A DNA stretch of 64,000 bases from Flavobacteriales bacterium (GCA_019638085.1 JAHBUL010000014.1:4472-68471); one strand, 5' to 3'; positions 3,049 through 33,965 are shown, numbered from the stretch's first letter. Program-made: numbers and translations. The notes: a model not told the origin generated them from the sequence alone.

Positions 3049-3301
3049 GGAATGGTCCGGAAGGGGAAGGGATATGCGGTAAAGGTACAAAGCCTGACAG
3101 CCCATTTCGCGTGTTACGGGGTATTGTTGGCAGTTCATGGCTCGGGCACTGAAAGAACAGCCCTCCAACAAATCTCACAGGGGCACTTGCAAATTCGCTG
3201 GATCCCACTAATTTCGCCCCGCTTTGGGCCGAATGTTCTTTGGCGAGAAACTTCAGCTGGGCAAAAACCTCAAAAAAACACTCACTCAGTCAGTCGAACT
3301 C

Positions 3302-3700
3302 ATGAACATTTACGTCGCCAACATTGCGTACTCAGTACAGGACCAGGACCTCCGCGAGCTTTTCGAAGCTCATGGCGAGGTGACCTCGGCCAAGATCATC
3401 ATGGACAAAGCCACCAACAGGAGCCGCGGCTTCGGTTTCGTGGAGATGTCCGACGACGATAGCGGACGTGCCGCGATCGAAGCGACCAACGGCAGCGCGT
3501 TCCATGGCCGTGACCTCGTTGTGAACGAAGCCCGTCCCCGCACCGAAGGTGCTGGCGACCGTGGTGGATACCGTGGTGGAAACGACGGCGGTGGCGGTGG
3601 ATATCGCGGTGGTGGCGATCGCGGTGGATACCGTGGTGGCAGCGACCGCGGTGGCAGCGACCGCGGAGATCGTGGCGGATACCGTCGCGACGAATACTAA
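3302..3700 (+). CDS. RRM-type RNA-binding protein with a C-terminal RGG/glycine-rich tail
   Basis: RNP-1 motif RGFGFVEM and RNP-2 NIYVANIAYSV. The C-terminus carries GGYRGG/DRGG repeats. Start is at the ATG at 3302 (MNIYVAN...). Confidence 0.85.
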   Translation: MNIYVANIAYSVQDQDLRELFEAHGEVTSAKIIMDKATNRSRGFGFVEMSDDDSGRAAIEATNGSAFHGRDLVVNEARPRTEGAGDRGGYRGGNDGGGGGYRGGGDRGGYRGGSDRGGSDRGDRGGYRRDEY

Positions 3701-3723
3701 GAAAGAACCTACTTTGCATCGAA

Positions 3724-3751
3724 AGCCCTCTGGTATGCCAGGGGGCTTTTT
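3724..3751 (+). terminator. Rho-independent terminator after the RRM gene
   Basis: GC hairpin gccctctgg/ccagggggc immediately followed by TTTTT, 24 nt after the stop. Confidence 0.5.
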
Positions 3752-3870
3752 CGTTGGTCAAGTACCCGAACGCCTTAGCACCTTCACCTGTGATCGCTGG
3801 CCAAAAAACGGTAATGTCACAGGCTGTGTCCGAGTTGCCGATGGCAAGTCCGGGTACCTTTGCGGCCCTC

Positions 3871-17954: not shown

Positions 17955-19550
17955 TCAGTCGACGTTATCGTGCAGGAACGGATTGTTCCGGCGCAGTTCC
18001 ACTTGGCGCTCACCCATTTCGTTGCTGCCTTCGCTGAGGGTGTATCGGCTCACGTTGCTATCGGTACTATGTGGTGTTTCACTCAGCAGCACATTGCGAC
18101 GCTTGTAGGCTGGCTCCCGTTCCATTTCAGCCAATCCGTTGGGGGTCCGCAGGCGCATGTTCACCTCACGCATATGGGCCAAACGATCCTCTGCGCGGGC
18201 CTGATGTTCTGCTGGTGAGAGATGGGCATGGGTCGGCTCATGGCCAGCGCTCCCATGAGCTACCGGTGGTTGGTGTTCATTGTCATGACCTTGCGGATGA
18301 CCTTCATTCAGGTCATGTACCACCTTCTGCTCTTCCTCGGGTTCCGGGCTGGGTTCCACGCGGGAACGTTCCATCTGGACCGGCTCCTCGAACTGAAGCC
18401 GGGACTGCTCTTTCACCGGTGCTTCCACCTGCTTGATATAGGGTTCCACACTAGGGGCTTCAGGTGCTTTTGCCGAAGGCACCGACATCTGCACCGGATT
18501 GGTGATCGGCGAGGTGATCATGGTCGGCAATTCGCTGTTCAGATCGGTCACCTTTTTCTCGGGCACGCGCTGCTCCAAGGTGGAGGTGAGCTCGTTCTGG
18601 CTGAAGCCCGTGGCGATGACGGTAACGCGGATCTTCTCTCCCAAAGCCTCATCGGTGCAATAGCCCCAGATCACATCGGCGGTGCTGCCAGCGGCATCCT
18701 GTATGTGGTCGGTGATCTCGGTCATCTCGTCCATGGAGATGGTCTTGGTACCGAGCCCTACATTGAGCAACACATACTTGGCACCTTTGATATCGTTGTC
18801 GTTGAGCAAAGGTGAAGCAAGTGCATCCTCAGCGGCACGAATGGCACGATCCTCTCCCTCGGCCTCGGCCATGCCCAGGATGGCCACGCCGCTGCCGGTC
18901 ATAACAGTGCGCACGTCCTCGAAATCCACGTTCACGGTTCCGGTCTTGGTGATGATCTCGGCAATGCCACGTGCAGCAGTGGTAAGCACGTTGTCGGCAT
19001 GGGCGAAGGCCTCGCTGATGTCGAGGTTACCGTAAAGGTCGCGCAGGCGATCGTTGTTGATCACCAGCAAGGTATCCACAGCTTGGCGCATCTCTTCAAT
19101 GCCTTCGGCGGCCTGGTTCTTCCGCTTGCGACCCTCCCATTGGAAAGGCATGGTGACAATACCCACGGTGAGGATGCCCATGTCCCGAGCGATACGCGCG
19201 ATCACGGGTGCGGCACCGGTTCCGGTGCCACCGCCCATGCCAGCGGTAACAAAGAGCATCTTGGTGCGGCTGCTGAGGAGTTCACGGATCTCCTCGATGC
19301 TTTCCTGCGCGGCAGCGTTACCACGTTCTGGGATGCTGCCTGCACCCAAGCCTTCGGTAAGGGCTGCACCAAGCTGAAGCTTCACCGGGATCGGGCTCAT
19401 ATCGAGTGCTTGCTTGTCGGTATTGCAAATGATGAAATCAACACCCACGATGCCTTGGGTGTGCATATGGTTCACGGCATTGCTACCGCCTCCACCCACA
19501 CCGATCACTTTGATGATGGAGGAGAGTTCGGTGGGAAGGTCGAATTTCAT
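17955..19550 (-). CDS. ftsZ: Cell division protein FtsZ with a long C-terminal linker
   Basis: GVGGGGSNAV, the T7 loop and the NTDKQAL motif. A ~200-aa C-terminal low-complexity linker ends in NNPFLHDNVD. Confidence 0.95.
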   Translation of the reverse strand: MKFDLPTELSSIIKVIGVGGGGSNAVNHMHTQGIVGVDFIICNTDKQALDMSPIPVKLQLGAALTEGLGAGSIPERGNAAAQESIEEIRELLSSRTKMLFVTAGMGGGTGTGAAPVIARIARDMGILTVGIVTMPFQWEGRKRKNQAAEGIEEMRQAVDTLLVINNDRLRDLYGNLDISEAFAHADNVLTTAARGIAEIITKTGTVNVDFEDVRTVMTGSGVAILGMAEAEGEDRAIRAAEDALASPLLNDNDIKGAKYVLLNVGLGTKTISMDEMTEITDHIQDAAGSTADVIWGYCTDEALGEKIRVTVIATGFSQNELTSTLEQRVPEKKVTDLNSELPTMITSPITNPVQMSVPSAKAPEAPSVEPYIKQVEAPVKEQSRLQFEEPVQMERSRVEPSPEPEEEQKVVHDLNEGHPQGHDNEHQPPVAHGSAGHEPTHAHLSPAEHQARAEDRLAHMREVNMRLRTPNGLAEMEREPAYKRRNVLLSETPHSTDSNVSRYTLSEGSNEMGERQVELRRNNPFLHDNVD

Positions 19551-19601
19551 GGGATCAGGGTTTTCAGGGGTTCAGGGTTCAATGGGTCAAAGGGTCGCGG
19601 G

Positions 19602-20894
19602 TCAGGCTTCGTCGTCGCGGAAAATGTCGGATGCACCTTTCAGCACTTGGTCGAAAAAGTTCCCGACCTTGAACTTGTGGCTGTGGCTCTTCACCTTAGG
19701 TGGGGCTTCCTCATGTTTGGTCTTGCGCCGTTCGATGTACTCGAATCCACGCAGTACGAGTCCCACACCGGTGGCGAACAGGGGGCTGGTCACATCATCC
19801 ACCTTGCTGGTGGCGAGGTGCTCGTTGGGATATCCGATGCGCGTGCTCATGCCTGTGACATACTCGGTGAGCTGACGCAGGTGCTTCAATTGCGCACCAC
19901 CGCCGGTGAGGACGATGCCGCCACTGAGCTGCTTCTCCAAGCCACTGTTCTTGATCTCGAAGTAGACATGGTCGAGGATCTCCTCCATCCGGCTCTGGAT
20001 GATGTTGGCCAAGTTCTTCAGGCTGATCTCCTTGGGATCACGACCACGGAGCCCAGGGATGCAGACCACCTCGTTCTCCTTGTTCTCCGAGGCAAGTGCG
20101 CTACCAAAGCGGCTCTTCAACAGCTCGGCCTGATCGCGAAGGATGGCGCAACCCATCTTGATGTCGTCGGTGATCACATTGCCGCCGAAGGGGATCACGG
20201 CCGTATGGCGAATGATGTGATCACTGAAGATGGCAATGTCGGTGGTTCCTCCACCGATATCCACCAGCACCACGCCCGCCTCCTTCTCTTCGGCGCTGAG
20301 CACGGCATCCGCGCTGGCGAGGGGTTCGAGGATCAACTCGGTAACATCGAGGTTGGCGCGTGCCACGCACTTGTTGATGTTGCGCGCGGCGGTGACCTGC
20401 CCCGTGATGATGTGGAAGTTGGCTTCCAGTCGCACGCCGCTCATGCCGATGGGATCCTTTATTCCCTGCTCGCTATCCACGATGTATTCCTGTGGCAGCA
20501 CGTGGATGATCTCCTCGCCCGGCACCATGGCCAGCTTGTACATATCGTCGATCAGCTGATCGATGTCGAGCTGTCGGATCTCCTCCTCGAGGCTTTGGCG
20601 GGTGATCATGCCTCGGTGATGCATGCTCCGGATATGCTGCCCGGCGATGCCCACGTTCACGGTAGTGATCTCCACTCCAGCACTGTTCTCCGCTTCCTCA
20701 ACGGCGGCTCGAATGCTCTCCACGGTGCGCTGGATATTGGTGACCACGCCACGGTTCACACCGTCGCTGCGGCTCTTCCCCATACCCATGATCTCGAGCT
20801 TTCCTTGCTCATTCCGTCGGCCTACGATGCAGGCGATCTTGGTGGTGCCTATGTCCAGGCCTGCGACTATTTCCTCGTTGTGCTCCATGTTCAT
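19602..20894 (-). CDS. ftsA: Cell division protein FtsA
   Basis: Actin-fold motifs (VAGLDIGTTKIACIVG; DIGGGTTDIAIF). Start is at ATG 20894 (MNMEHNEEIV), 40 nt after the ftsQ stop. Confidence 0.9.
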   Translation of the reverse strand: MNMEHNEEIVAGLDIGTTKIACIVGRRNEQGKLEIMGMGKSRSDGVNRGVVTNIQRTVESIRAAVEEAENSAGVEITTVNVGIAGQHIRSMHHRGMITRQSLEEEIRQLDIDQLIDDMYKLAMVPGEEIIHVLPQEYIVDSEQGIKDPIGMSGVRLEANFHIITGQVTAARNINKCVARANLDVTELILEPLASADAVLSAEEKEAGVVLVDIGGGTTDIAIFSDHIIRHTAVIPFGGNVITDDIKMGCAILRDQAELLKSRFGSALASENKENEVVCIPGLRGRDPKEISLKNLANIIQSRMEEILDHVYFEIKNSGLEKQLSGGIVLTGGGAQLKHLRQLTEYVTGMSTRIGYPNEHLATSKVDDVTSPLFATGVGLVLRGFEYIERRKTKHEEAPPKVKSHSHKFKVGNFFDQVLKGASDIFRDDEA

Positions 20895-20934
20895 TTTCTC
20901 GTTCGGGGGGGGCGGTGGTGCCGGGGTTTCCGGC

Positions 20935-21741
20935 TCAGTAATGGGTTCGTTTGGTGCAGACCACTTGATCGTCAAAGCGCAGGTCGATGGTGCTGTAGCG
21001 GCGCCAGTCGGTCTGCGGTATGCCTTCGGCGAAGAACATGCGCAGCTTGGTCAAGCGCTGCTGAAAATGGGTGCCGTCGCCGATGCGCACTCGCATCATG
21101 CCCACGGTGGGTATCAGCGTGATATCGCCATTGGCATCCACAACCGCTTGGCAGAACAAGGCGTTCCAGAGCGGGTCGGCGATGATGGTTTGTGCGAGGG
21201 CGTGGATGGCACGGCTGTGCGTATGAAGGGCCAGGCTGTCATTGCCGAAGGCCACGTTCACAGGGGCGCGTTCGGCGAAGGGTTCAGCGAGTTGTCCGGT
21301 GACCACCATCACGCGTGCCGTGTAATTCCGGTTCAGCGGCATGGTCCAGCCTTCCTTGTCGATGTAGAAGCCTGAGCCGTCGGCGTTCACTACGCGGACG
21401 ATCGGCTCGCGTTGGCGGACCTTCACTTTCAGGATGCCATCCATGGTGTGGTACACATCGGCCTCCGCCACACATGGGATGGCTCGCAGGCGCTGCTCGA
21501 TGCCGGTCTCATCCACCTTGTTGATGGGTGTACCGATCACGGGGCCGGCTCCTTTGATCACTTCCTGTTTGAGCGCTTCGGAGTCGATGAAGTGCATGCC
21601 GCTGGACATGTCCATTTCCACCTCAATATCCCTTACGGGGAGGCTGCCTCCACTGCGCTCCACGAAGCCCAGCGCGGCGAGCACGGCACATCCGGCAACG
21701 ACCTTCGCCGCGATCCGTAGGATATGCTTCGTTCTGTTCAT
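20935..21741 (-). CDS. ftsQ: Cell division protein FtsQ (TM + POTRA)
   Basis: Single N-terminal TM followed by a POTRA-like domain. Its position between murC and ftsA and the 4-nt overlap with murC support the call. Confidence 0.75.
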   Translation of the reverse strand: MNRTKHILRIAAKVVAGCAVLAALGFVERSGGSLPVRDIEVEMDMSSGMHFIDSEALKQEVIKGAGPVIGTPINKVDETGIEQRLRAIPCVAEADVYHTMDGILKVKVRQREPIVRVVNADGSGFYIDKEGWTMPLNRNYTARVMVVTGQLAEPFAERAPVNVAFGNDSLALHTHSRAIHALAQTIIADPLWNALFCQAVVDANGDITLIPTVGMMRVRIGDGTHFQQRLTKLRMFFAEGIPQTDWRRYSTIDLRFDDQVVCTKRTHY

Positions 21742-23117
21742 TCTTGTCGATTCACCATTGCCGCGATGGCCGGGACCAGCCTATCGATGTCACCTGCGCC
21801 AAGGGTCAGCAAGATGTCCACATTCCGCCCCTCCAACAGCGGTATCAATCGCTCCTTTGTACACACCTCGGTGTTAGTGAGCTGTACCTGTTCACCCAGC
21901 CATTGCGAGGTAATACCGGGCAGCGGTTCCTCCCGGGCGGGGTATATCTCGAGGAGAATAAGCTCGTCCACTTTGGCCAGGCTACGCGCAAAATCGGCTG
22001 CCAGGTCCCGCGTGCGGCTGTAGAGGTGTGGCTGAAATACCGCAGTGATGGTACGGCCGGGATAGAGCTCACGCACGCTGCCGATGCAGGCATCCAACTC
22101 GGTGGGGTGGTGTGCGTAATCATCAATGAGGACGCTCTTTTCCGTTCGTGCCCGCACCTCAAAACGCCTGCGTACTCCGAGGAATGTGGCCAACCCTTTC
22201 CGCAGGGCGTGCGGTTCCACGCCTGCATGCAAGGCCATGGAGGCGGCGGCCACGGCGTTCTCCACATTGTGCCTTCCCGGCATACCCAAAGTGAGGTCGC
22301 GCAGCACTTGCCCACCCGCCACCAGGTCGAAATGGTACGCACCATCGCGTACGACAACATGCTCCGCGTGTGGCCCATCCACTGCATCGAGCCCATAGGG
22401 GATCGCATCGCGGAGCACCGTGGCATGCTCCTTCAGGCGTTCCAGAACACGTTCGTGAACCAACATCCGACCTTTTACCAACGCGGCAAACTCCGCATAG
22501 GCCTGGTACATCGCCTCGGCCGTACCATAGATGTCCAAGTGGTCCGGGTCCATGGCGGTGATGATCGCCTCATCCGGGTGAAGGGCGAGAAAGCTTCGAT
22601 CATACTCATCAGCTTCCACCACGTTCAGCACGGCCTTGGAGTTCAGTAGAACGTTGGTATCGTAGTTGGCACTGATACCGCCAAGGAATGCGTTGCATGG
22701 AATTCCTCCGGAAGTGAGCAAGTGGGCGAGCATGGTGCTCACCGTGGTCTTTCCGTGCGTACCGGCCACGGCCATGGTCCGTCGGTCACGGGTCACCAAG
22801 CCCAGTACCTCGCTGCGCTTTTTGATGACCGCTCCTCGTTCCTTCCAGAAAGCGATCAACGGATTGGTCATCGGCACGGCAGGTGTTCGCACCACCATTA
22901 TACGCGTAGCATCCGCCTCGCGGAATTCCTGGGGAATATTCCGTGGGTCCGTACTATAGCTCACATCGATCCCCTCATGCGCCAGTTGCGCAGCGATCTC
23001 ATTCGGGGTCTTATCGTACCCGGCCACTGTGGCACCTTGGCGCCGGAAATACCGCGCGAGGCCGCTCATGCCGATGCCGCCGATGCCAATGAAGTAGAGC
23101 AATTCCGGGCGTTCCAT
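21738..23117 (-). CDS. murC: UDP-N-acetylmuramate--L-alanine ligase
   Basis: IGIGGIGMSGLA, the Mur ligase P-loop GTHGKTT and the central and C-terminal Mur ligase domains. Confidence 0.9.
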   Translation of the reverse strand: MERPELLYFIGIGGIGMSGLARYFRRQGATVAGYDKTPNEIAAQLAHEGIDVSYSTDPRNIPQEFREADATRIMVVRTPAVPMTNPLIAFWKERGAVIKKRSEVLGLVTRDRRTMAVAGTHGKTTVSTMLAHLLTSGGIPCNAFLGGISANYDTNVLLNSKAVLNVVEADEYDRSFLALHPDEAIITAMDPDHLDIYGTAEAMYQAYAEFAALVKGRMLVHERVLERLKEHATVLRDAIPYGLDAVDGPHAEHVVVRDGAYHFDLVAGGQVLRDLTLGMPGRHNVENAVAAASMALHAGVEPHALRKGLATFLGVRRRFEVRARTEKSVLIDDYAHHPTELDACIGSVRELYPGRTITAVFQPHLYSRTRDLAADFARSLAKVDELILLEIYPAREEPLPGITSQWLGEQVQLTNTEVCTKERLIPLLEGRNVDILLTLGAGDIDRLVPAIAAMVNRQE

Positions 23118-23118
23118 T

Positions 23119-24255
23119 TCAAGCTGCCGTTTTGATCGTTGTTGCTGAAGGCAAGGCCAAGCGGATCACTTCCGCCGCGATGGCCTCTGCCGCGTTGCTC
23201 ATCCCGAGGTCTTCCATGGCCAAGCGCAATCGGTCGCGCTCGCCGGGATCGGCGACCAAGCGCAGGATCTCTGATCCGAGTTTCTCATTGGCTTCGGCAT
23301 CCTTCACCAGGATCGCTGCTCCCCGATCGGAAAGTGCGCGCGCATTGCCCGTCTGGTGATCTTCTGCTGCGGTGGGAAGTGGTACCAGGATGCTGGGCAA
23401 GCGGGTGAGGCAGAGTTCGCTCACGCTGATGGCACCTGCCCGGGCCACCACCACATCGGCCACTGCATAGGCCAGATCCATGCGGGTGATGAACTCGTGG
23501 ACATGTGCATCGGCAAAGCCGGCATTGCTCACAGCCTCCACGGCTTGCGCGTGAAAGGGTGTACCGGTCTGCCAGATCAGTTGCACACCTTGGTCCCGCA
23601 GTTGGGGCAAGGCGGCAGCGATGCCGTGGTTGATGCCGCGCGCACCCAAACTTCCGCCGGTCACCAACACTACCGGAGCACCTTCCCGGAGTTGGAAATG
23701 CTCCATGCCCCGTGGACGTTTTCCGGTCAGGCGGACCATGTCCTGCCGGACCGGGTTGCCGGTAAGGCGGATCTTTTCCGCTGGGAAATAGCGGTCCATA
23801 CCCGGGTATGCGACACAGATGATATTGGCCCGCTTCGCCAGCATGCGGTTGGTGGCACCGGCATGGCTGTTCTGTTCCTGTATGAGCGTGGGTACCTTGG
23901 CGCGTTGGGCCGCGGCCAGCACAGGTCCGCTGGCGTAGCCGCCCACGCCCACGGCCACATGCGGCTGAAAGGTGCGTACAATGCGGCGCGCCTTCCACAT
24001 GCTCTGGATCACGCGCCAAGGCAAGCCTACGTTCTTCCACAATGCCTTGCGCTGGAAGCCGCGGATGGGGAGTCCCGTGATCTCGTATCCGGCGGCAGGC
24101 ACCTTCTCCATCTCCATCTTCCCTTCGGCACCCACGAAGAGGAAGCGCGTATCGGGCGCCTTGTCCTTCACGGCGTTCGCAATGGCGATGGCCGGGAAGA
24201 TGTGCCCTCCCGTACCTCCTCCGCTGATCAACACCTTAAGCGGCTGCTGCGGCAT
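23119..24255 (-). CDS. murG: UDP-GlcNAc:lipid I N-acetylglucosaminyltransferase MurG
   Basis: KVLISGGGTGGHIFPA. The ORF-track start at 24315 is a GTG, so the ATG at 24255 (MPQQPLKVLISGGG) was chosen. It overlaps the ftsW stop by 20 nt. Confidence 0.9.
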   Translation of the reverse strand: MPQQPLKVLISGGGTGGHIFPAIAIANAVKDKAPDTRFLFVGAEGKMEMEKVPAAGYEITGLPIRGFQRKALWKNVGLPWRVIQSMWKARRIVRTFQPHVAVGVGGYASGPVLAAAQRAKVPTLIQEQNSHAGATNRMLAKRANIICVAYPGMDRYFPAEKIRLTGNPVRQDMVRLTGKRPRGMEHFQLREGAPVVLVTGGSLGARGINHGIAAALPQLRDQGVQLIWQTGTPFHAQAVEAVSNAGFADAHVHEFITRMDLAYAVADVVVARAGAISVSELCLTRLPSILVPLPTAAEDHQTGNARALSDRGAAILVKDAEANEKLGSEILRLVADPGERDRLRLAMEDLGMSNAAEAIAAEVIRLALPSATTIKTAA

Positions 24256-25438
24256 GATCACGGGTTTTCGTGGTACGGTTGGCAGCCTGCTCCCCGGCAG
24301 GTTGGTCATATACACTGCGGCTAACGCTGAGGATGATCCCGAGGGAAAGGCAGGTGAACCACATGCTTGTTCCGCCCATGCTCACCAAGGGCAGCGGCTG
24401 TCCGGTCACGGGCACCAGGTTCACCCCCACGGCCATGTTCACCAAAGCTTGTAGTACCAGGCTTAGCGCCAAGCCCACCGCTACGAGCGCACCGAATGGT
24501 TTTTCGCACCTGTTGGCAATACGCATGGCGCGCGAGAGCAGGATAAGGTAGAGCAACAACACCCCCATGCCGCCAATGATCGACCCATACTCTTCGATGA
24601 TGAAAGCATAGATCATATCGCTTTCGGGGTGTGGCATGAAGTTCCGCGAGGTACCCGTACCGGGACCGTTCGGCAGGAATCCGCCATGCACGATGGCGAT
24701 CTTGGCATTGTTCACTTGGTAGTTGGAGTCACGGTCGTCACCACCGTGGTTCACCAATCGGGATTGCCAGGTTTCCAAGCGGGGAAGGAGCTCCGGATTG
24801 GCCTTGGAGACCACGAGCAACAGGCCGAATACGGCCGCAGCGATGCCTCCAACGGATAGCATGTGGCGGATCGGTACCTGGCCGATGAACATCAGGATCA
24901 TGCAGGTACCGAAGAGGAGAGCGGCCGTGGAGAAGTTCGCTGGCAGGATGAATCCGCATACTGCTCCCACAGGAAGGATCAGTTTGAGGACCACTTCACG
25001 GAAGGTCCATTGCTCTTCGCGATGCCGGCCCAGCACGCGAGCCAAGTACACCATGATCACCACGCGGGCAAGGTCACTGGTCTGGAAGGTGATGCCAACC
25101 CCGGGAATGGCCAGCCAGCGCGATGCCCCGTTCACATTTGCTCCAACCAGCAGGGTAAGCAACAGCAGCCCGATGGTTGCGCCGAGCAGTATTTGCGAAA
25201 GTCTGGAATAGACGGTGTACTTGAGCTTGCTGGCGGCATACATGATGCCCCCACCGGCAATGAGCATCATACCATGTTTCACAAGGATGCGGAAGGTGCC
25301 GCCATCGTGCCGCCAACCCATCCACGAAGAGGCGCTATAGACCGCCAACAGGCTGGTCACGCCCAATAGCAGCGCCACCATCCAGATGGTGCGGTCGCCT
25401 TTGAGGTGATCATTGAAGAGGTTGTTCATCCGGTCCAT
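24236..25438 (-). CDS. ftsW: Lipid II flippase/peptidoglycan polymerase FtsW (SEDS family)
   Basis: A 400-aa polytopic SEDS protein sitting in the ftsW slot of the dcw cluster. Confidence 0.9.
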   Translation of the reverse strand: MDRMNNLFNDHLKGDRTIWMVALLLGVTSLLAVYSASSWMGWRHDGGTFRILVKHGMMLIAGGGIMYAASKLKYTVYSRLSQILLGATIGLLLLTLLVGANVNGASRWLAIPGVGITFQTSDLARVVIMVYLARVLGRHREEQWTFREVVLKLILPVGAVCGFILPANFSTAALLFGTCMILMFIGQVPIRHMLSVGGIAAAVFGLLLVVSKANPELLPRLETWQSRLVNHGGDDRDSNYQVNNAKIAIVHGGFLPNGPGTGTSRNFMPHPESDMIYAFIIEEYGSIIGGMGVLLLYLILLSRAMRIANRCEKPFGALVAVGLALSLVLQALVNMAVGVNLVPVTGQPLPLVSMGGTSMWFTCLSLGIILSVSRSVYDQPAGEQAANRTTKTRDHAAAAA

Positions 25439-25449
25439 CTATTTGATGA

Positions 25450-25965
25450 TCAGAGATCCGTTACGGCCCTTTTGAATTCAGCGGCACGTTCCTCGTGGTT
25501 GGCCGTGCCATTGCCGCTAGGGCAGGCCGGGCTGAAGAGCACCTTGCCACCGGGTACCGCTAATTCACGCGCGGCGAACACGGCGGTCCGCAGGTCATCC
25601 GTGTTATATACATGGCCCAGTTCGGCATTCAGGGCATCCACTTGGGCATCATCAGCCTTGCCGAAGAACACCAAGCCGTCCACATGCTCCTTCATGAAAT
25701 CCATCATCCGCTGGTCCAAGGCATCCACCATGGAAGCATCCGCCACCCACACCAGTGGCATACCCAGATCGATGATGGACAGCAACGTGGCATCCAGGAA
25801 AGTGCTCCGGCTATCATCCACATAATCCACACCGGCCACGGTGGCCACGGTGCGCAGGCTGTGCGGACCTTGGCGCAATTCGCCCAGTCCGTTGCCGCGC
25901 ATGGCGATCAGCAGTCGTGCCAATTCAGATGTTCCCGTGCTTTTCATCCTGGACTCAACGATCAA
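25450..25965 (-). CDS. Orphan MurD C-terminal-domain paralog (171 aa), translationally coupled to murD
   Basis: HSLRTVATVAGVDYVDDSRSTF aligns with murD's own [52 protein letters not shown] aligns with [31 protein letters not shown]. It contains only the C-terminal Mur-ligase domain, and the ATGA start/stop overlaps murD. Confidence 0.6.
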   Translation of the reverse strand: MIVESRMKSTGTSELARLLIAMRGNGLGELRQGPHSLRTVATVAGVDYVDDSRSTFLDATLLSIIDLGMPLVWVADASMVDALDQRMMDFMKEHVDGLVFFGKADDAQVDALNAELGHVYNTDDLRTAVFAARELAVPGGKVLFSPACPSGNGTANHEERAAEFKRAVTDL

Positions 25966-27296
25966 AGGGCCCGCACTGCAGATTTGAATTTGCGTCCGCG
26001 GTCCTCATAATTCTCGAAAAGATCGAAGCTGGCGCAGGCCGGGCTCAAAAGCACCACATCGCCGGGTTCACTCAATTCATAGCCGGTGTTCACCGCTTGT
26101 TCCGCGGAGGTTACGTCCACCATGTTCAGCACGATATCGCCGAAGGCCTTGTGGATCTTCTCATTGTCGGTACCGAGGCAGATGATCGCCTTCACCTTTT
26201 GGCGCACCAGGTCCCGCAGCTCGGAATAATCATTCCCCTTATCCACGCCACCCATCACCCAGATCACGGGCTTCTCCATGCTCTCCAAGGCGAACCATGT
26301 ACTGTTGATGTTGGTGGCTTTCGAGTCGTTGATGAACTCCACGCCGTTCACCAGACCCACGCGTTCCAAGCGGTGCTCCACGTTCTGGAAGTCACCGAAC
26401 GATTCGCGGACCACGTCCTTCCGCACTTCCAGCACCCGTGCCGCAATACCGGCGGCCAGTGAATTATAGACGTTGTGCTTGCCTTGTAGGGCGAGTTCCA
26501 GAATGCTCATGTCGAAGGTTGTTTGGTTGATGGTGATGTGGATGTTCTCGTTCTGTAGGTATCCGCCTTGCTCGATGGGCACGCGGATGGAAAAGGGCCA
26601 CTGCTGGGCCTTGATGGTGTGCCGTCTCAGTCCTTCGCGGGTCTGCGGATCGTCGGCACAGTAGATGAAATGATCTTCCTTCCCCTGGTTCATGGTGATG
26701 CGGAACTTGCTGTCCACGTAGTTCTCCATGCGGTTCTCGTACCGATCCAAGTGGTCGGGGGTGATGTTGGTAAGCACCGCGATGTGCGGCTTGAGCGTCC
26801 GTGTGCCATCGAGCTGGAAACTGCTGAGCTCGAGCACATAGATGTCGTGGCGTTCCTTGGCCACTTCCGCAGCGAAAGAGGTGCCCACATTCCCCGCCAG
26901 GCCCACGTTCATTCCGGCCTTTTTCAGGATATGGTGCAAGAGCAGCGTGGTGGTGGTCTTCCCGTTGCTGCCCGTGATGCCGATGATGGGTGCCTTCACA
27001 TGGCGCGCGGCGAACTCCACCTCGCCGATCATGGGCACGCCCTTGTCCCTGATAGCACGCACGATGGAGGCCGTGGTCGGTATTCCGGGGCTCTTCACCA
27101 CTTCGTCAGCATCCAGCACCTTGCTCACCGTATGCCCACCTTGCTCATAGGAGATCCCGGCTTGATCCAACCGTGCGCTGAACGCAGCAGGGATCAGGCC
27201 TGCATCGCTCACAAAAACAGGGATACCCAGCTTCGTGGCAAGCAGTGCAGCTCCTACTCCGCTCTCTTGTGCTCCAAGGACCACCAGCTTCTTCAT
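25962..27296 (-). CDS. murD: UDP-N-acetylmuramoylalanine--D-glutamate ligase
   Basis: A full-length 444-aa protein with [12 protein letters not shown] and a C-terminal SPACASFD motif. Confidence 0.9.
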
Positions 27297-28540
27297 CGCA
27301 GCTTGAGGGTTACGAGGGTGGTCACGGCGAGCATCACGCCCACGATGAGGAAGCGGGTCACGATCTTGCTTTCGTGGTAGCCGAGCTTCTGGTAGTGGTG
27401 ATGCAAGGGTGCCATCAGGAAGATCCGTCGGCCTTCACCATAGCGTTTACGCGTGTATTTGAACCATGAGACCTGCATCATCACGCTCAGGTTCTCCACC
27501 ACGAATACGCCACAGAGCACAGGGATCAGCAGCTCCTTGCGGACCAGGATCGCCAGCACGGCGATGACGCCGCCCAACATCAAGCTGCCGGTGTCACCCA
27601 TGAAGACCTGGGCCGGATAAGCATTGTACCAGAGGAAGCCGATGCAAGCCCCGAGCAAGGCCCCGATGAACACCACCAGTTCGCCGATGCCGGGGATATA
27701 CATCACATCGAGATACTGGGCGAAAACGATGTTACCGCCGATGTAGGTGAGCACCCCCAAGGCCAGCACGATGATCGCACTGGTGCCTGCGGCCAGTCCA
27801 TCGATGCCGTCGGTAATATTGGCCCCGTTGCTTACCGCAGTGATGATGAAGACCACCACCAGCACGTACAGTATCCACGTGTATTTGCGCGCCTCCCGCC
27901 CGAAGAGACCCATCACCGAGGAATAGTTCAGTTCATTCCCTTTCACGAATGGAATGGTGGTGTTCGGTTGGCGGCGATCGAGGAGGTAACGCACGTTCCC
28001 GTTCTCCTCGGTGAACGTGGTGACCTCCTCCGGCTCGAATTGGTCCGCGATCACTTGCGGTACTTCCACCTTGGTGCGGATGGAGGGGTGGAAATACACC
28101 GTAAGACCGATCACCAGGCCGATGCCCACTTGCCCGAAGACCTTGAAGATGCCGGCCAGACCACGCTTATCCTTTTTGAATACCTTGATGTAGTCGTCCA
28201 CGAAACCGATGGTGCCCAACCAGATGGTGGCCAACAGCATCAACAGGATGTAGATGTTGTCCAAGCGGGCGAAAAGCAATGTGGGGATGACGGTGGCGGC
28301 AATGATGATGAGACCGCCCATGGTGGGTGTGCCCTGCTTTTCCGTTTGGCCTTCCAGTCCGAGGTCACGGACGGTCTCCCCTACCTGCATGCGCTGCAGT
28401 AGGCGCACGATGCCCTTGCCGAACCACAGCGAGATCACCAACGAGATGATCAATGCCATGCCCGCGCGGAAGCTGATGTAATCGAACACACCGCTTCCGG
28501 GGAAATCCAATCCGAGCCCTTTGACCAAGTGGTACAGCAT
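27293..28540 (-). CDS. mraY: Phospho-N-acetylmuramoyl-pentapeptide transferase
   Basis: A polytopic MraY with the conserved DD..D and HHH motifs ([10 protein letters not shown]). Confidence 0.95.
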
Positions 28541-30003
28541 TATTTCCGCATCAGTTCAAGGGTTTCCTTCAGTACTTCCACGTCATCGAAATGGTGGCGT
28601 ACGCCATGCACTTCCTGATAGGTCTCATGGCCTTTCCCTGCCACCAGGACCACTTCGCCGGGGGATGCCATGGCCACGGCTTGGCGGATGGCCTCACGCC
28701 GATCGGTGTTGACAAATGCCCTGGAGAGGTCCGCAGGCAACAGTCCTTTGCGCATCTCTTCAATGATGTCCATCGGCTCCTCGTTCCGCGGATTGTCGTT
28801 GGTGAGGATGATGCTGCGGCTCATGGACGCGGCAATCGCGGCCATCAGCGGACGCTTCGTGCGGTCCCGGTCGCCACCGCAGCCCACTACCGTGATCACG
28901 CGATCACGATCGCCACAGACGGCATTGATGGTGGAGAGCACGTTCTTCAACGCGTCCGGCGTATGCGCATAGTCCACGATCCCGATCACTCCGGTGCTGC
29001 CACGGATCACTTGGAAGCGGCCAGGAGGCGGTTCCAGATCACTGAGTGCCGTAAGTACGTCCAATGCCTGAAATCCCAGTAATACGGCCGAGGAATACAC
29101 CGCCAGGATGTTGCTCGCATTGAACTCCCCCACCAAGCGGGAGAACATGTCGTGCCCGTCGATATTGAGCTGCAGGCCGATGAGTTGGTTCTCGATGATC
29201 CGCGCCTTGTGATCGGCCATGTTGCGCACGGCGAAAGAGCTTTTGGACGCTTTGGTATTCTGCACCATCACGGCGCTATGGGAATCATCCGCGTTCACCA
29301 AGGCGATCGCATCCGCAGGCAGCTCATCGAAGAAGGTCTTCTTCGCATGGATATATGCATCGAAGGTGCCGTGATAATCGAGGTGATCATGGGTGATGTT
29401 GGTGAACACGCCCAGCACGAAACGCAGGCCTGCAATACGCTGCTGTACCACGGCGTGGCTGCTCACTTCCATAACACAGTGCGAGATGCCGGCCTCCACC
29501 ATTTGTGCGAGCAGCTCATTCAAGCGAAGCGGGTCGGGCGTGGTATGGGTTGCTGCCACCACTTCGCTTCCGATGCGGATATCCACGGTGGAGATCAGGC
29601 CGCTCTTGTGCCCCAAGGCACGTAGTAGCTTGTACAGCAAAGTGGCCACACTCGTCTTCCCGTTCGTGCCGGTGATGCCGATCAGCTTGAGCTTACGGTC
29701 CGGATGATCATAGTAATTGCCCGCCATGATGGCCAAGGCATGCCGACTATCCGCAACTCGCACGTAGGTGATACCGGCGCGAAGCTGCTTGGGAAGATCC
29801 TCGCAGATGATGGCTGCTGCGCCACTGTCAATTGCGGTTTCGATAAAAGCATGCCCATCACTGGCAGTGCCGCGCACGGCTATGAATGCAGTGAAGGGAA
29901 CCACCTGTCGGCTATCGAAGGTGATGTGCTCGATGGCGGTATTGGTATCGCCCACCACCTGTTCCAAGTGGGTGCGGTAGAGTATGTCCTTGAGCAGTTT
30001 CAT
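28540..30003 (-). CDS. murE: UDP-MurNAc-L-Ala-D-Glu:meso-DAP ligase
   Basis: [10 protein letters not shown] and a DNPR-type motif ([11 protein letters not shown]). Confidence 0.9.
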
Positions 30004-32114
30004 GTGGCGAGTTCAAGGGTCACGGTGGAGCCCTTCAGGGGGCGTGTTCCGGGTGCAGGGGTTTGCCGCTTCACCATGCCGCTGCCGGTGAGGCGCACGC
30101 GTAGGCCGTGGTTCTCCAGGATGTACATGGCATCGCGCAAGCCCATGCCGATCACGTTGGGCATCATGCCGGTCCCCTCCGCAGGTACGGCACGCGGGGC
30201 CACCACCACGGCGCTATCCGTGGCTTGCGTGGCGGCCCATTCACCGTCCCCCTCAATACGCACGGGGATGTTCAGGCCGTCCAATACCGTAAGCAGATCG
30301 GCCCTGTTGCCACCAAAGGATACCGGCGTTTGGAACACGCTGTCGGTCTGGGCCACGGTGGTCTGCATCTCCAGCCGATTGCTGTAGATCTTGTCCGCGA
30401 TCTCGCGGAACACAGGCCCGGCCACCACGTTTCCGTATACGCCGCGCATGCTGGGGGAGCTCACTACCACTATACACGTATACTGCGGCGCACCAGCCGG
30501 GAAGTAGCCTACGAATGAGGCTTGGTAACTCACGCCGTTCACCTTGTACCCCGCCTTGTTGGAAGCGATCTGGGCAGTGCCTGTCTTTCCCGCGATGCGG
30601 AAGTGGGCCGAACGCAGGTTCACGGCGGTACCGGAATCCACCACTCCTTCCAGCACACTGCGGATCTTCTGCAACGTGCCGTCGGAGCAAATACGTTCAT
30701 TGAGCGTTACGGGCGGAAAACGTTCGATCACCTTTCCATTCCTGGTGATGGAGCGAACGAATTGTGGTTGCACCATGCGCCCGTTATTGGCGATGGCATT
30801 ATAGAAGGTGAGCATGCGCAGCGGAGTTCCGCTCACCTCGTACCCGATGCTCATCCATGGTAGGCTGGTACCGCTCCAGAGCTTTTTGTCTTCGGGCCCC
30901 CGCAGCACGGGCATGCCTTCACCCGGAATACGGATACCCAAGGGAGAACCGAAGCCAAGCCCTCGGAGCCCTTCCACAAAACGTTTCGGGTCCCCCTTGT
31001 ACGCATTGTCAATGGCCTGTGAGATCCCTGTGTTACTACTGACCTCCAACGCTCTCCGCAAGCTGATCAGCCCATAACCTGCTTCATGGGAGTCCCGCAT
31101 CCAGCGGTCGTAGAACTTGTGCTTCCCGCCCCGGGTATCCACGATCTGGTCCAGCGATGCAAGCCCGTCCTCCATGGCCACCATCAGTGCGGCGATCTTG
31201 AAGGTGCTGCCCGGTTCCGTGCTGGCCCCTACCGCATAATTGTAATCCTCGGCGTAGCTGCTATCCTTCTGGATGGTGAGGTTGCTGATGGCCTTGATGT
31301 ACCCGGTCCGGGTCTCCATCACGACCACACAGCCATGGTGTGCACCGTTCTTTCTCAGTTGGGCAGCGAGCGCGGCATCCGCCACGTCCTGCAAGTTCAT
31401 ATCGATGGTGGTATGTACATCGCTTCCCGGTATGGGATCCTGCCCTTCTCCTCCATCCACCGGCATCCACACACCACCCGTCAGGCGGCGCTCCAATCGC
31501 TTGCCACGTATGCCTTGCAACCATTCCGCATAGCCGGCCTCCAAACCGATCGCCGTGCTGTCCTTCAGCAGATAGCCTACGGTGCGCGAGGCCAGTCGCC
31601 CAAAGGGGCGAATGCGCACCATGTGCTTGTCCGCAATGAATCCGCTGCGGTTGCGCCCCAACCTGAACAACGGCATCCGGCGCAGGCTCTGCAACTGCTC
31701 GTGATCGCAGCGCCGCTTGATCAGATGGTAGCGCTCTCCACGTGCGTAGGCATCCACCAAGCTCCGGCGGTAATCCTGCATGGAGCGATCGCCGAACAGC
31801 TCGGAAAGCTCCCAACTGAGTGAATCCACATTGGCCGCAAACACCTCTTTGGTAAGGCCATCGGCCCGCATGTCCATACGGATCTCATACTCCGGAACGC
31901 TGGTGGCCAACAAGCGATCATCGTCGCTGAAGATGTGCCCGCGCTCGGACTGGACGCTGCGCATGGCAGTGGCCACGTTCACCGCCTTGGCACGCCACTT
32001 ATCGCCTTCCATGATCTGGATAGTGAAAAGCTTCACCGCGATGGCAGCGCCGAACAGCATCAGCACCGCATACACCAAGGTGATGCGCAGGCGGAGTTTT
32101 TCGGGCTCGTTCAT
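30000..32114 (-). CDS. ftsI: Penicillin-binding protein 3 / FtsI transpeptidase with a C-terminal PASTA-like domain
   Basis: N-terminal TM, a dimerisation domain and the transpeptidase motifs STFK, SSN and KTGT. The C-terminal ~60 aa (MPNVIGMGLRDAMYILENHGLRVRLTGSGMVKRQTPAPGTRPLKGSTVTLEL) fit the PASTA consensus. Confidence 0.9.
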   Translation of the reverse strand: MNEPEKLRLRITLVYAVLMLFGAAIAVKLFTIQIMEGDKWRAKAVNVATAMRSVQSERGHIFSDDDRLLATSVPEYEIRMDMRADGLTKEVFAANVDSLSWELSELFGDRSMQDYRRSLVDAYARGERYHLIKRRCDHEQLQSLRRMPLFRLGRNRSGFIADKHMVRIRPFGRLASRTVGYLLKDSTAIGLEAGYAEWLQGIRGKRLERRLTGGVWMPVDGGEGQDPIPGSDVHTTIDMNLQDVADAALAAQLRKNGAHHGCVVVMETRTGYIKAISNLTIQKDSSYAEDYNYAVGASTEPGSTFKIAALMVAMEDGLASLDQIVDTRGGKHKFYDRWMRDSHEAGYGLISLRRALEVSSNTGISQAIDNAYKGDPKRFVEGLRGLGFGSPLGIRIPGEGMPVLRGPEDKKLWSGTSLPWMSIGYEVSGTPLRMLTFYNAIANNGRMVQPQFVRSITRNGKVIERFPPVTLNERICSDGTLQKIRSVLEGVVDSGTAVNLRSAHFRIAGKTGTAQIASNKAGYKVNGVSYQASFVGYFPAGAPQYTCIVVVSSPSMRGVYGNVVAGPVFREIADKIYSNRLEMQTTVAQTDSVFQTPVSFGGNRADLLTVLDGLNIPVRIEGDGEWAATQATDSAVVVAPRAVPAEGTGMMPNVIGMGLRDAMYILENHGLRVRLTGSGMVKRQTPAPGTRPLKGSTVTLELAT

Positions 32115-32521
32115 GGCCTGGTGCGTTGTGCTTCCAATTCCTTCTTGTCCACGGTGATCCGCAATGGCGGTTCCCGGCTTTCACGCAGGCCCATATCACC
32201 GATATCATCCGCCACTTGGCTTTGCCGCTCGGAACGCTCCAGATGGCTGCGCACGGTGATGTACTCCGAGCGCATCTCCTTCAGCTCACTACTGGTGCGG
32301 TCCAGTTCGCGCACGGTGCGCTCGGTCCAATAACCGTAGCCGATGTACGAGAGCATCAACCCGGCCACGAACAGGAGGAAGGGCATATTGGACAACACCT
32401 TCTCCCGCGTGAGGAAGGTTCCGTTCAACACGTTCACCAACCCGCGTGAGAACGTGCGGCGGCGGCGTGGCTTCTTGTCCTTCACCTTTTTCTCCGGTAT
32501 GTCCTTCTTACGCTTGTTCAC
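32111..32521 (-). CDS. ftsL: Cell division protein FtsL-like (single TM + coiled coil)
   Basis: A 136-aa protein with a basic N-terminus, one TM (FLLFVAGLMLSYIGYGYW) and a coiled coil. It sits between rsmH and ftsI. Confidence 0.65.
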   Translation of the reverse strand: MNKRKKDIPEKKVKDKKPRRRRTFSRGLVNVLNGTFLTREKVLSNMPFLLFVAGLMLSYIGYGYWTERTVRELDRTSSELKEMRSEYITVRSHLERSERQSQVADDIGDMGLRESREPPLRITVDKKELEAQRTRP

Positions 32522-33432
32522 TGCCGTACTGCTGTTCGGAGCCGCGCACTGCGCGCCCGCGGATTTTCCAATTGCTCTTTTTCAGAAGGCTGCACCGCCT
32601 TGCTCTGTGTGGGTTTGAAGGGCCGAAGGCTGTTGCCGAACAGGTCCTTCTCTTCCTTCCCTTGCAGGTGACCCGCACGCATCCAATTCTTCACCAGGCG
32701 ATCTTCCAAGCTGTGATAGCTCATCACCACCAACCTTCCGCCGGGCTTGACCACCTCCGCGCTCACCTCCAACAGGCGCTCCAACGAGGCCAGTTCATCA
32801 TTCACGGCGATACGCAGCGCTTGGAAGACCTGGGCCAGAAAGCCATGCTCCTCGCCTCGGCGTGCCATGGGACGCAGGATCTCCACCAGCTGGAACGTGG
32901 TCGAGATCCGTTCCTGCGTGCGGGCCTGCACCAAGCGGCGGGCGACCTTGTGGGCATTATGCACCTCACCATAGGTGTTCAGTAGATCCGTGAGCGCTCG
33001 TTCATCCAAGCTGTTCACCAGGTCCGCTGCCGTGCGCTTCGCCTGCTGGTTCATCCGCATGTCCAGCGGGGCATCGAACCGGAAGCTGAAGCCACGCTCA
33101 GCTGTATCGAACTGGTGGCTGCTTACTCCTAGATCAGCCAGAAGCCCGTCGACAGGGAGCTTTCCAAGGAAGCGTAGATGGTTGGCCACCCACCGGAAAT
33201 CCGATGCCACTAGAGTGAAACGGGGATCATCAGGAGCGTTACTGCGTGCGTCAGCATCCCGATCGAACGCGACCAACGACCCTTCGGGGCCCAACTGAGC
33301 GAGGATGGCCCTGCTGTGGCCGCCACCACCGAACGTCACATCCACATAAGTGCCGTCGGGGCGGATGGCGAGGGCATCAAGACACTCTTGCAGGAGAACA
33401 GGCTCATGGTATGTGAGGTGTTGCCCCGTCAT
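32518..33432 (-). CDS. rsmH: 16S rRNA (cytosine1402-N4)-methyltransferase RsmH/MraW
   Basis: HEPVLLQE...YVDVTFGGGGHS SAM motif. The annotated start overlaps mraZ by 29 nt. Confidence 0.9.
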   Translation of the reverse strand: MTGQHLTYHEPVLLQECLDALAIRPDGTYVDVTFGGGGHSRAILAQLGPEGSLVAFDRDADARSNAPDDPRFTLVASDFRWVANHLRFLGKLPVDGLLADLGVSSHQFDTAERGFSFRFDAPLDMRMNQQAKRTAADLVNSLDERALTDLLNTYGEVHNAHKVARRLVQARTQERISTTFQLVEILRPMARRGEEHGFLAQVFQALRIAVNDELASLERLLEVSAEVVKPGGRLVVMSYHSLEDRLVKNWMRAGHLQGKEEKDLFGNSLRPFKPTQSKAVQPSEKEQLENPRARSARLRTAVRQ

Positions 33433-33880
33433 TTCCCAAACTGCCCATTACGTCCTCCGCCAGTGCAGAGAGGTCCACTTTTTCGCGGCGCATCTGCGCA
33501 TAGCCCGCCTTGCTCCATACTTCCACGCGATCGCCCAAGCCCACGAGCTTGAGATCCTTGGCCAGCTTGGGGTCGTCCATCAAAGCCTTGGGCAACAGCA
33601 ATCGGCCGCTGCCATCCAGTTCCAGATGGGTGGCGCCGGCGGTGAATCGCCGGATGAATTCCATGTTCTTCTCCACGAAGCGGTTCAACCGGCCCAGCAT
33701 GCGATTGGTGTCGTCCCAGACCTGTTGCGGGTAGAGCACCAAGCAAGGCCGGAACACATCGCGATTGATCACGAAGCCGCGCGAGAGCGAATCGGCCAAC
33801 TGCTTCTTCAACCCGGCAGGGAGCACCAAACGCCCCTTGGCGTCCAGTCGCACATCGTATTCGCCGAGTAGGTTGAGCAT
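33404..33880 (-). CDS. mraZ: Transcriptional regulator MraZ
   Basis: Two MraZ repeats containing DxxxR motifs (DAKGRLVLP; DGSGRLLLP). It is the first gene of the dcw cluster. Confidence 0.9.
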   Translation of the reverse strand: MLNLLGEYDVRLDAKGRLVLPAGLKKQLADSLSRGFVINRDVFRPCLVLYPQQVWDDTNRMLGRLNRFVEKNMEFIRRFTAGATHLELDGSGRLLLPKALMDDPKLAKDLKLVGLGDRVEVWSKAGYAQMRREKVDLSALAEDVMGSLGNDGATPHIP

Positions 33881-33925
33881 TGGTGATCATCGTGGGTGCC
33901 GCTGGCTGCGAAAGTAGGACCATTG

Positions 33926-33965
33926 CCCCACTTTGCCCCATATAACCCCACTTTGTTCAAAACTA
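33926..33965 (-). promoter_or_regulatory. dcw (Pmra) promoter -7 box plus three 10-bp-phased MraZ-operator-like direct repeats
   Basis: On the minus strand TAGTTTTG (plus 33958-33965) matches the Bacteroidota -7 consensus TAnnTTTG. Directly downstream are CAAAGTGGGG / TTATATGGGG / CAAAGTGGGG, seen as plus-strand CCCCA at 33926, 33936 and 33946. This reproduces the (G/A)TGGG x3 at 10-bp spacing known for MraZ operators. Confidence 0.5.

Follow-up and report, generated by a model that had tools for sequence, protein, structure and literature searches.

A separate gene between murD and ftsW, here termed gene X, encodes a stand-alone and diverged paralog of the MurD C-terminal domain in a 64-kb stretch of Flavobacteriales DNA (hereafter, the window). 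Our analysis reveals that X is a real, selectively maintained accessory gene of the cell-wall and division cluster and not a leftover. It is a domain-only, catalytically dead paralog of a well-known enzyme, and forms an extra component of a highly conserved operon. At a probability of roughly 40%, we read its product as a non-catalytic pseudo-domain that would dock on the Mur machinery through putative protein contacts. The dcw cluster is among the most conserved and best-studied gene arrays of bacteria, and the Mur ligases are antibiotic targets; no dcw cluster with a stand-alone gene for the MurD C-domain is described in the literature searched.

Genomic setting of gene X

The Bacteroidota-type dcw cluster of the window spans positions 17955-33941, and the genes treated here are all encoded on the minus strand (Table 1). 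The order is an ORF at the mraZ position, rsmH, Bacteroidetes-type ftsL, ftsI, murE, mraY, murD and X, followed by ftsW, murG, murC, an ORF at the ftsQ position, ftsA and ftsZ. The murD gene is complete and canonical. Its product matches the NCBIfam model TIGR01087 over positions 2-440 of 441 (408 bits, E 6e-122), Pfam assigns the domains Mur_ligase_M, Mur_ligase_C and MurD-like_N, and the catalytic motifs, SPACASFD among them, are intact. All three domains are thus recovered by Pfam and NCBIfam, in agreement with the initial annotation that the adjacent murD keeps its own C-domain. The murF and ddl genes are absent from the cluster, as they are from the related Bacteroidota loci seen, and the gene at the ftsQ position of related loci (266-269 aa) has no Pfam match, like its counterpart here. 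The window as a whole has a GC content of 57.6% and contains 0 tRNA genes and 0 Rfam families at gathering score.

The longest ORF at the X locus (25450-25965, minus strand) encodes 171 aa from a TTG codon. This ORF and its overlap with the murD stop had been annotated initially and are real; the overlap reads TTGA, however, and not ATGA as first given. The start was also probably placed too early, as homologs and independent gene calls favor the ATG at 25947, 18 nt further in and 14 nt past the murD stop, which yields a protein of 165 aa. The GC and GC3 values of X (0.59 and 0.69) are in line with those of the neighboring genes. Co-transcription of murD, X and ftsW is likely, because the genes are separated by only 14 nt (murD to X) and 11 nt (X to ftsW) and the minus strand of 23000-31000 lacks any terminator-like site. 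Rfam, tRNA and promoter/terminator scans returned nothing relevant to the X locus.

Table 1. Coordinates of X, of its sequence elements and of related or neighboring genes (window positions, unless a locus is named)
Feature	Coordinates	Strand	Description	Basis
mraZ-position ORF	33429-33941	minus		no Pfam match at E<=1e-5
murE	28540-30003	minus
mraY	27293-28540	minus
murD	25962..27296	minus	444 aa, full length: N-terminal, central ATP-binding and C-terminal domains	TIGR01087 and Pfam
spacer	25948..25961	minus	murD stop to X start, 14 nt	sequence
gene X	25450..25947	minus	stand-alone MurD C-domain paralog, 165 aa + stop	ATG at 25947
X H29-S-L-R32	25852..25863	minus	equivalent to MurD hinge H301-R302-F-E304	alignment, column conservation
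X D44-D-S-R-S-T-F50	25798..25818	minus	equivalent to MurD N316-D317-S-K319-A-T321-N322 loop	column analysis
X W67-D78 (WVADASMVDALD)	25714..25749	minus	at the place of the MurD GGxDKGxDY loop	alignment, columns
X L119-R-T-A-V-F-A-A-R-E-L-A130	25558..25593	minus	near-invariant helix specific to X1	column analysis
X S139-P-A-C-P-S-G-N-G-T-A-N-H-E-E-R154	25486..25533	minus	equivalent to MurD S410-R425, D-Glu gamma-carboxylate loop	alignment, columns
ftsW	24236..25438	minus	400 aa; begins 11 nt past X stop	Pfam FTSW_RODA_SPOVE, E 3e-64
murG	23119-24315	minus
murC	21738-23117	minus
ftsQ-position ORF	20935-21741	minus		no Pfam match at E<=1e-5
P0170	L092/L093 4001-4549		182-aa MurD C-domain gene
P0155	L094 4001-4549		182-aa MurD C-domain gene
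P0417	L095 5001-5549		182-aa MurD C-domain gene

X is a MurD C-domain in sequence and predicted fold

X aligns with residues 300-444 of the adjacent MurD over 145 gapless columns, with 27% identity and 50% positives (BLASTP E 2e-18), and chance is far too small to explain this similarity. The alignment includes the motif pairs HSLRTVATVAGVDYVDDSRSTF with its MurD counterpart and LFSPACPSG with LLSPACASF. TIGR01087 likewise places residues 29-169 of X on model positions 300-440 of 441 (E 5.6e-21), which bears out the initial placement of the likeness in MurD residues ~290-444 only. The score of 75.1 bits lies below the equivalog cut-off of this model for EC 6.3.2.9 (211.95). The Pfam domain Mur_ligase_C (PF02875) scores only 15.3 bits against the product (E 0.037), under the gathering cut-off of 28.4 bits, while neither Mur_ligase_M nor MurD_N was found in X by Pfam. 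Hereafter X1 denotes the type found in the window and X2 a second, more MurD-like stand-alone set; a precomputed PF02875 match exists for about half of the X1 list and for nearly all X2 relatives.

Profile and structure searches lead to the same family. The X family profile retrieved only MurD chains from the PDB, the best being P. aeruginosa MurD (E 8.6e-22), and matched residues 291-434 of E. coli MurD at E 4e-13. The AlphaFold2 model, built with 38 family sequences, shows an alternation of strands and helices (pLDDT 83.5, pTM 0.81), and its best 32 Foldseek matches are all MurD C-domains (probability 1.00, TM to query 0.56-0.68), followed by weaker matches to the C-domains of MurE, MurF, Mpl and MurT. 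On this model, X is predicted to adopt the Rossmann-like alpha/beta fold of a Mur ligase C-domain. BLASTP, TIGR01087 and the modeled fold therefore concur with the initial annotation of a stand-alone, diverged MurD C-domain paralog between murD and ftsW. The first ~28 residues of X correspond to the final helix of the central domain in MurD, with the MurD alignment beginning at about residue 300, and such a helix relic is expected after a partial tandem duplication of the 3' part of murD.

Members of the family carry domain-level or transferred names in the databases, namely 'glutamate ligase domain-containing protein', 'hypothetical protein' and 'cyanophycin synthetase' at NCBI and 'UDP-N-acetylmuramoylalanine--D-glutamate ligase' at JGI. 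The names 'MurD', 'cyanophycin synthetase' and 'hypothetical' are misleading for these genes.

Conservation, synteny and selection

X had been called an orphan, and instead belongs to a large family. A protein search with X returned 186 clusters, down to 44% identity; the 120 of them that were listed are mostly stand-alone proteins of 157-194 aa from Flavobacteriales MAGs, with 44-99% identity. A scan that took a single genome for each GTDB species found relatives in at least 115 species-level genomes. Loci were retrieved for 80 of the 115 genomes, all of them MAGs (labeled Flavobacteriales, Bacteroidota, Cryomorphaceae and similar), and the order full-length murD, X, ftsW is present in 80/80. 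In these loci murD encodes 442-458 aa where complete, and X encodes 158-177 aa from an ATG that typically lies ~20 nt beyond the murD stop. The X ORF is intact in 79/80 loci, L063 being the exception. An identical X protein recurs on 23 or more contigs, and 31 collection blocks index it. In the X-less genomes that hold the closest MurDs (58% and 52% identity), murD is directly followed by ftsW, and this adjacency in the nearest X-less clusters indicates that X is a lineage-specific insertion into the ancestral order.

The dN/dS of X (Nei-Gojobori) ranges from 0.15 to 0.26, as compared with about 0.06-0.12 for murD and ftsW. The medians are 0.257 for X (66 pairs), 0.123 for murD and 0.114 for ftsW at the same dS, which extends up to ~1.5. 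X is thus under purifying selection that is about twofold relaxed relative to its neighbors.

These data bear directly on whether X is merely a dead remnant of a partial duplication or a piece of murD split off by a frameshift. Its position and truncation point match a partial tandem duplication, and its rate of evolution is about double that of the adjacent genes, yet the constant-length, intact ATG-start ORF in 79/80 loci and the dN/dS of 0.15-0.26 refute such a reading, to which we attach next to no credence. In addition, the motifs of X are invariant across 38-119 sequences, murD is complete without X, X has its own ATG, its frame relative to murD varies among loci, and the identical protein recurs in at least 23 contigs. 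X is accordingly neither a pseudogene nor a frameshifted part of murD, and all three findings initially named as grounds for refutation are contradicted by these data. The initial suggestion of a remnant of partial tandem duplication holds for the origin of the gene and fails for its present state.

X lies in the murD frame, with only the murD stop and a short spacer between them, in 16/84 loci (L009, L016-L018, L035, L050, L052, L056, L064, L066-L068, L073, L079, L081 and L082); chance would give a larger share, one-third, and so there is no hint of selected read-through. The 569-aa ORF of L063, which appears to fuse X to FtsW (4440-4470), results from a 1-nt deletion in a long-read MAG. Restoring one base yields ...VRDLSIT-stop, ftsW of the same MAG is also frameshifted, and the rest of the sequence matches its relatives. 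A second long-read MAG, L096, likewise has indel errors within its dcw cluster, where mraY and murD are each split into pieces (2948-5549). On the low-coverage contig L097 (cov 1.2), an identical X is followed by short unrelated ORFs and ftsW is missing (1499-2498), probably the result of a chimeric or erroneous assembly. The 379-aa protein P0186 was rejected as an X fusion, being a true MurD fragment, with GGTDKGNEY intact, joined to unrelated sequence.

Residues lost, kept and gained

In MurD, the contacts to ADP include Arg302 and Asp317 (PMC9780078, PMC4816537), and Arg302, in the hinge loop 294-304, serves as a 'handle' for C-domain closure (PMC4816537). D-Glu is bound by Thr321, Lys348, Ser415, Leu416 and Phe422, with Lys348 as the ligand of the alpha-carboxylate (PMC9780078). 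We compared these positions by column across 119 X1, 132 X2, 81 cognate MurD and 45 other MurD sequences (E. coli MurD numbering).

Gly345 and Asp417, each conserved in 100% of MurDs, are not conserved in X2 or X1, and the same applies to Lys348 (88-93% in MurD), Gly349 (87-100%) and Asn350 (71-100%). By comparison, His301, Asp317, Ser318, Thr321, Ser410-Pro411, Arg425-Gly426 and Phe429, at 98-100% in MurD, remain at 81-100% in X2 and X1. Three further positions separate the two types. Arg302 is present in 100% of MurDs and 97% of X2 but replaced in X1 (Ser in 48%); Lys319 is present in 100% and 98%, respectively, and is Arg in 61% of X1; Asn322, at 93-100% in MurD, is Asp in 95% of X2 and Phe in 93% of X1.

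In the window, X has Ser for Arg302, next to the hinge His that is kept in 92% of X1. Its NDSxxT-type loop carries Lys319 to Arg and Asn322 to Phe exchanges, with the equivalents of Asp317 and Thr321 kept at 98-99%. All of Gly345, Lys348, Gly349 and Asn350 are lost from the W67-D78 region, and with them the whole GGxDKG loop, so that the set of D-Glu residues is broken although Thr321 and Ser415 are kept. In S139-R154, Ser415 and Arg425 are retained and Asp417 is gone; position 416 has changed from Leu/Phe to Gly, and position 422 is His in the X of the window and Tyr in 61% of the family. This loop has become a near-invariant PSGxGFAN motif in X1; residues 144-148 of the remodeled loop are modeled at low pLDDT. 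The second gain of X1 is the L-R-T-A-V-F-x-A-R-E-L-A helix, whose R120, A122, F124 and E128 are invariant; the matching MurD helix is variable.

X cannot be a ligase: the UDP-binding N-domain and the ATP-binding central domain are both missing, as are the Lys348 loop and Asp417 of the D-Glu pocket. As judged from the residue columns, this pocket is dismantled, and the side of the C-domain that shuts onto the ATP site in the central domain has been preserved, most clearly in X2. This pattern would be compatible with the 'regulator or decoy' initially proposed.

The retained pocket residues raise the alternative that X senses or buffers a small molecule, such as D-Glu, a nucleotide or UDP-MurNAc-peptide, and relays metabolite status to the division machinery. 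The equivalents of Thr321, Ser415, Asn421, Tyr/Phe422 and Arg425 are kept, and the glycine-rich PSGxGFAN loop of X1 is a new conserved element at the former D-Glu site. We consider this role unlikely, given the loss of Lys348 and Asp417, the low confidence at which the loop is predicted and its only moderate conservation in X2; moreover, MurD binds ATP and UMA mainly through its other two domains and not through the C-domain (PMC9780078).

Origin of X and other C-domain-only MurD genes

When 1.8 billion representative proteins were searched with a profile, the matches graded continuously from X-like proteins into MurD, and X2 came to light among them. X2 comprises proteins of 162-176 aa from Salibacteraceae and other Flavobacteriales MAGs (P0268-P0380), which NCBI names 'glutamate ligase domain-containing protein [Salibacteraceae]' or 'hypothetical protein [Flavobacteriales]' and which are ~29% identical to the type of the window. 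The single X2 member checked for its context, P0135 (L085/L086 5001-5519), lies between full-length murD and ftsW. X1 and X2 share their position, approximately the same N-terminal truncation, the loss of the GGxDKG loop and the change of Leu409 to Phe. We define the stand-alone MurD-C family (X1 and X2) by a length of 160-180 aa, an own ATG, the order murD-X-ftsW, loss of GGxDKG and Leu409 to Phe, and X of the window shows every one of these features. In profile-profile comparison X2 is the best partner of X1, though weakly favored, and X2 is itself nearer to MurD than to X1; in a neighbor-joining tree, eight general MurDs fall among the descendants of the most recent common ancestor of X1 and X2. 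A single origin of both types, with acceleration in X1, is plausible. The probable source of X is a murD gene whose 3' part was duplicated in tandem in the ancestor of a sub-clade within the Flavobacteriales.

Some other Bacteroidota, known here from metagenome contigs, carry a 182-aa MurD C-domain gene of a different arrangement. In the dcw clusters of P0170, P0155 and P0417, the order is ftsI, murE, mraY, the 182-aa gene, ftsW, murG and murC, with the mraY stop only 1-33 nt ahead of the 182-aa gene, too close to accommodate the rest of murD, and tblastn found no remnant of the MurD N-terminal or central domain in the retrieved flanks. P0417 and its relatives have fully intact C-domain catalytic motifs and a decayed relic of the central-domain HNxYN motif, while P0170 and P0155 also carry degenerate C-domain motifs. 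These genes could be a split MurD. They are relevant to X, since they suggest that a MurD C-domain can be maintained, and may even work, as a polypeptide of its own.

Several divergent 182-aa proteins, P0170, P0155 and P0417 among them, start precisely at the Met that corresponds to MurD Met263 (window 26508-26510), a conserved internal residue of Bacteroidota MurD. Among the database entries P0381-P0497, 51 of the 86 examined 182-aa proteins have the Met263 start with all motifs intact; these motif-intact entries most likely stem from gene calls that are truncated or broken by a frameshift, and they inflate the apparent counts of C-domain-only proteins. One of them, P0462 (182 aa, on a 3.75-Mb contig), was rejected as a stand-alone gene, as both mraY and murD are broken by indels in that assembly.

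The 182-aa genes with intact catalytic motifs (P0417, L095), together with the hinge and ATP-facing residues kept in X2, would be in line with X acting as an alternative C-domain in trans, either changing the amino acid that is added or serving a Mur-type ligase encoded elsewhere that lacks its own C-domain. Such a partner gene was not found, and the 64-kb window contains no Mur-ligase fragment other than X. The pocket of X2 is degraded rather than re-specified, and the adjacent MurD is fully canonical. We therefore regard an alternative C-domain as very unlikely.

Proposed docking of X on the Mur machinery

In the reading that we favor, X would dock in trans on MurD, at its N-terminal and central module, or else on a different protein of the Mur pathway, for example MurG. 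The docking face would comprise the hinge His301, Asp317, Ser318, Thr321, the SPAC strand and Arg425-Gly426, with Arg302 and Lys319 in addition in the slower-evolving branch. Once docked, X may act as a non-productive lid or tether and thereby modulate precursor synthesis, or organize it beside the membrane steps. In an exploratory mirror-tree analysis of 66 genomes, whose distances are non-independent and carry no attachable significance, the partial correlation of X distances was 0.37 with MurD N-terminal plus central domains and 0.40 with MurG, as compared with 0.05 for FtsW and -0.13 for the MurD C-domain. These values weakly support docking on the MurD N-terminal and central module or on MurG.

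Several points argue against this mode of docking or narrow it. Free X would have to compete with the tethered C-domain of MurD, which is kinetically unfavorable unless the affinity is high. In X1, ATP-facing docking may no longer be suitable, as Arg302 is lost, Lys319 is changed to Arg and Asn322 to Phe. In X2, the MurD residues that are kept could partly reflect slow divergence.

The neighborhood of X admits a second possible, though doubtful, role, that of an adaptor to the membrane steps. X would mimic the MurD C-domain and bind FtsW (or MraY/MurG), coupling precursor synthesis to the SEDS polymerase, and would thus do in trans what natural MurD-FtsW fusions achieve by a covalent link. Such chimeras occur in Proteobacteria and Actinobacteria (PMC10214165). 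X is directly upstream of ftsW in 80/80 loci, other Bacteroidota keep a C-domain-only MurD gene beside ftsW without an adjacent murD, and the partial correlation with MurG (0.40) would also suit an adaptor. The near-zero correlation with FtsW (~0.05) does not, the only locus where X seems fused to FtsW, L063, owes this to a 1-nt indel in a long-read MAG, and a copy of the 3' end of murD made by tandem duplication would lie next to ftsW by default.

A bolder combination of these ideas, which we hold to be quite unlikely, is that X is a catalytically dead second copy turned into a trans-acting lid or checkpoint subunit, which gates MurD or changes its addition in step with FtsW/MurG. MurD C-domains would then work as separate polypeptides in Bacteroidota, including the 182-aa genes that replace murD, where the enzyme would be either split or relocated. 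If true, X would be a previously unrecognized protein component of the conserved dcw module.

X spans a clade of environmental, uncultured Flavobacteriales, which would imply a layer of organization or regulation of precursor synthesis that is absent from model organisms. X could also serve as a natural tool for two open questions, complex formation among Mur ligases and the way in which the mobile MurD C-domain contacts its partners. X and the 182-aa genes together suggest that the MurD C-domain can act as an independent module.

Comparison with known systems

Our comparison with canonical MurD reveals that X shares the C-domain fold, the hinge His, the NDSxxT loop, the SPAC strand and the C-terminal ERG..F helix, and that its sequence homology is specific to MurD among the Mur ligases. 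The obvious differences are that X is a separate polypeptide of 165 aa without the N-terminal and central domains, that the Lys348 loop and Asp417 are lost and that, in the branch of the window, Arg302 is lost as well and Lys319, Asn322 and Leu409 are changed to Arg, Phe and Phe, respectively. Foldseek also matched the X model to chains 8qma_O, 8ras_Q and 8r6s_Q (E 4e-4 to 6e-3), which we take to be the MurE-like subunit of the plastid-encoded RNA polymerase. In both cases a Mur-ligase-derived fold has outlasted ligase function; the plastid subunit, however, is a much larger paralog of MurE in a eukaryotic organelle and belongs to an unrelated partner complex.

MurD2/MurL is another system in which a MurD paralog alters the D-Glu step (PMC8788868). 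Unlike the domain-only X, MurD2 is a full-length, active ligase that adds L-Glu and is paired with an epimerase. The system is known from Xanthomonadales, some Alphaproteobacteria and rare actinobacteria, with none reported in Bacteroidota (PMC8788868), and its different architecture and taxa led us to reject a relationship with X. The MurD-FtsW chimeras of Proteobacteria and Actinobacteria (PMC10214165) resemble the locus of the window in that a MurD C-domain is placed next to FtsW, a link that is covalent in the chimeras and genetic in X. The chimeras contain a full-length, presumably active MurD, whereas X is an extra, degenerate C-domain made as a separate protein, set off from ftsW in the window by its stop codon and the 11-nt spacer, beside a murD that is separate too.
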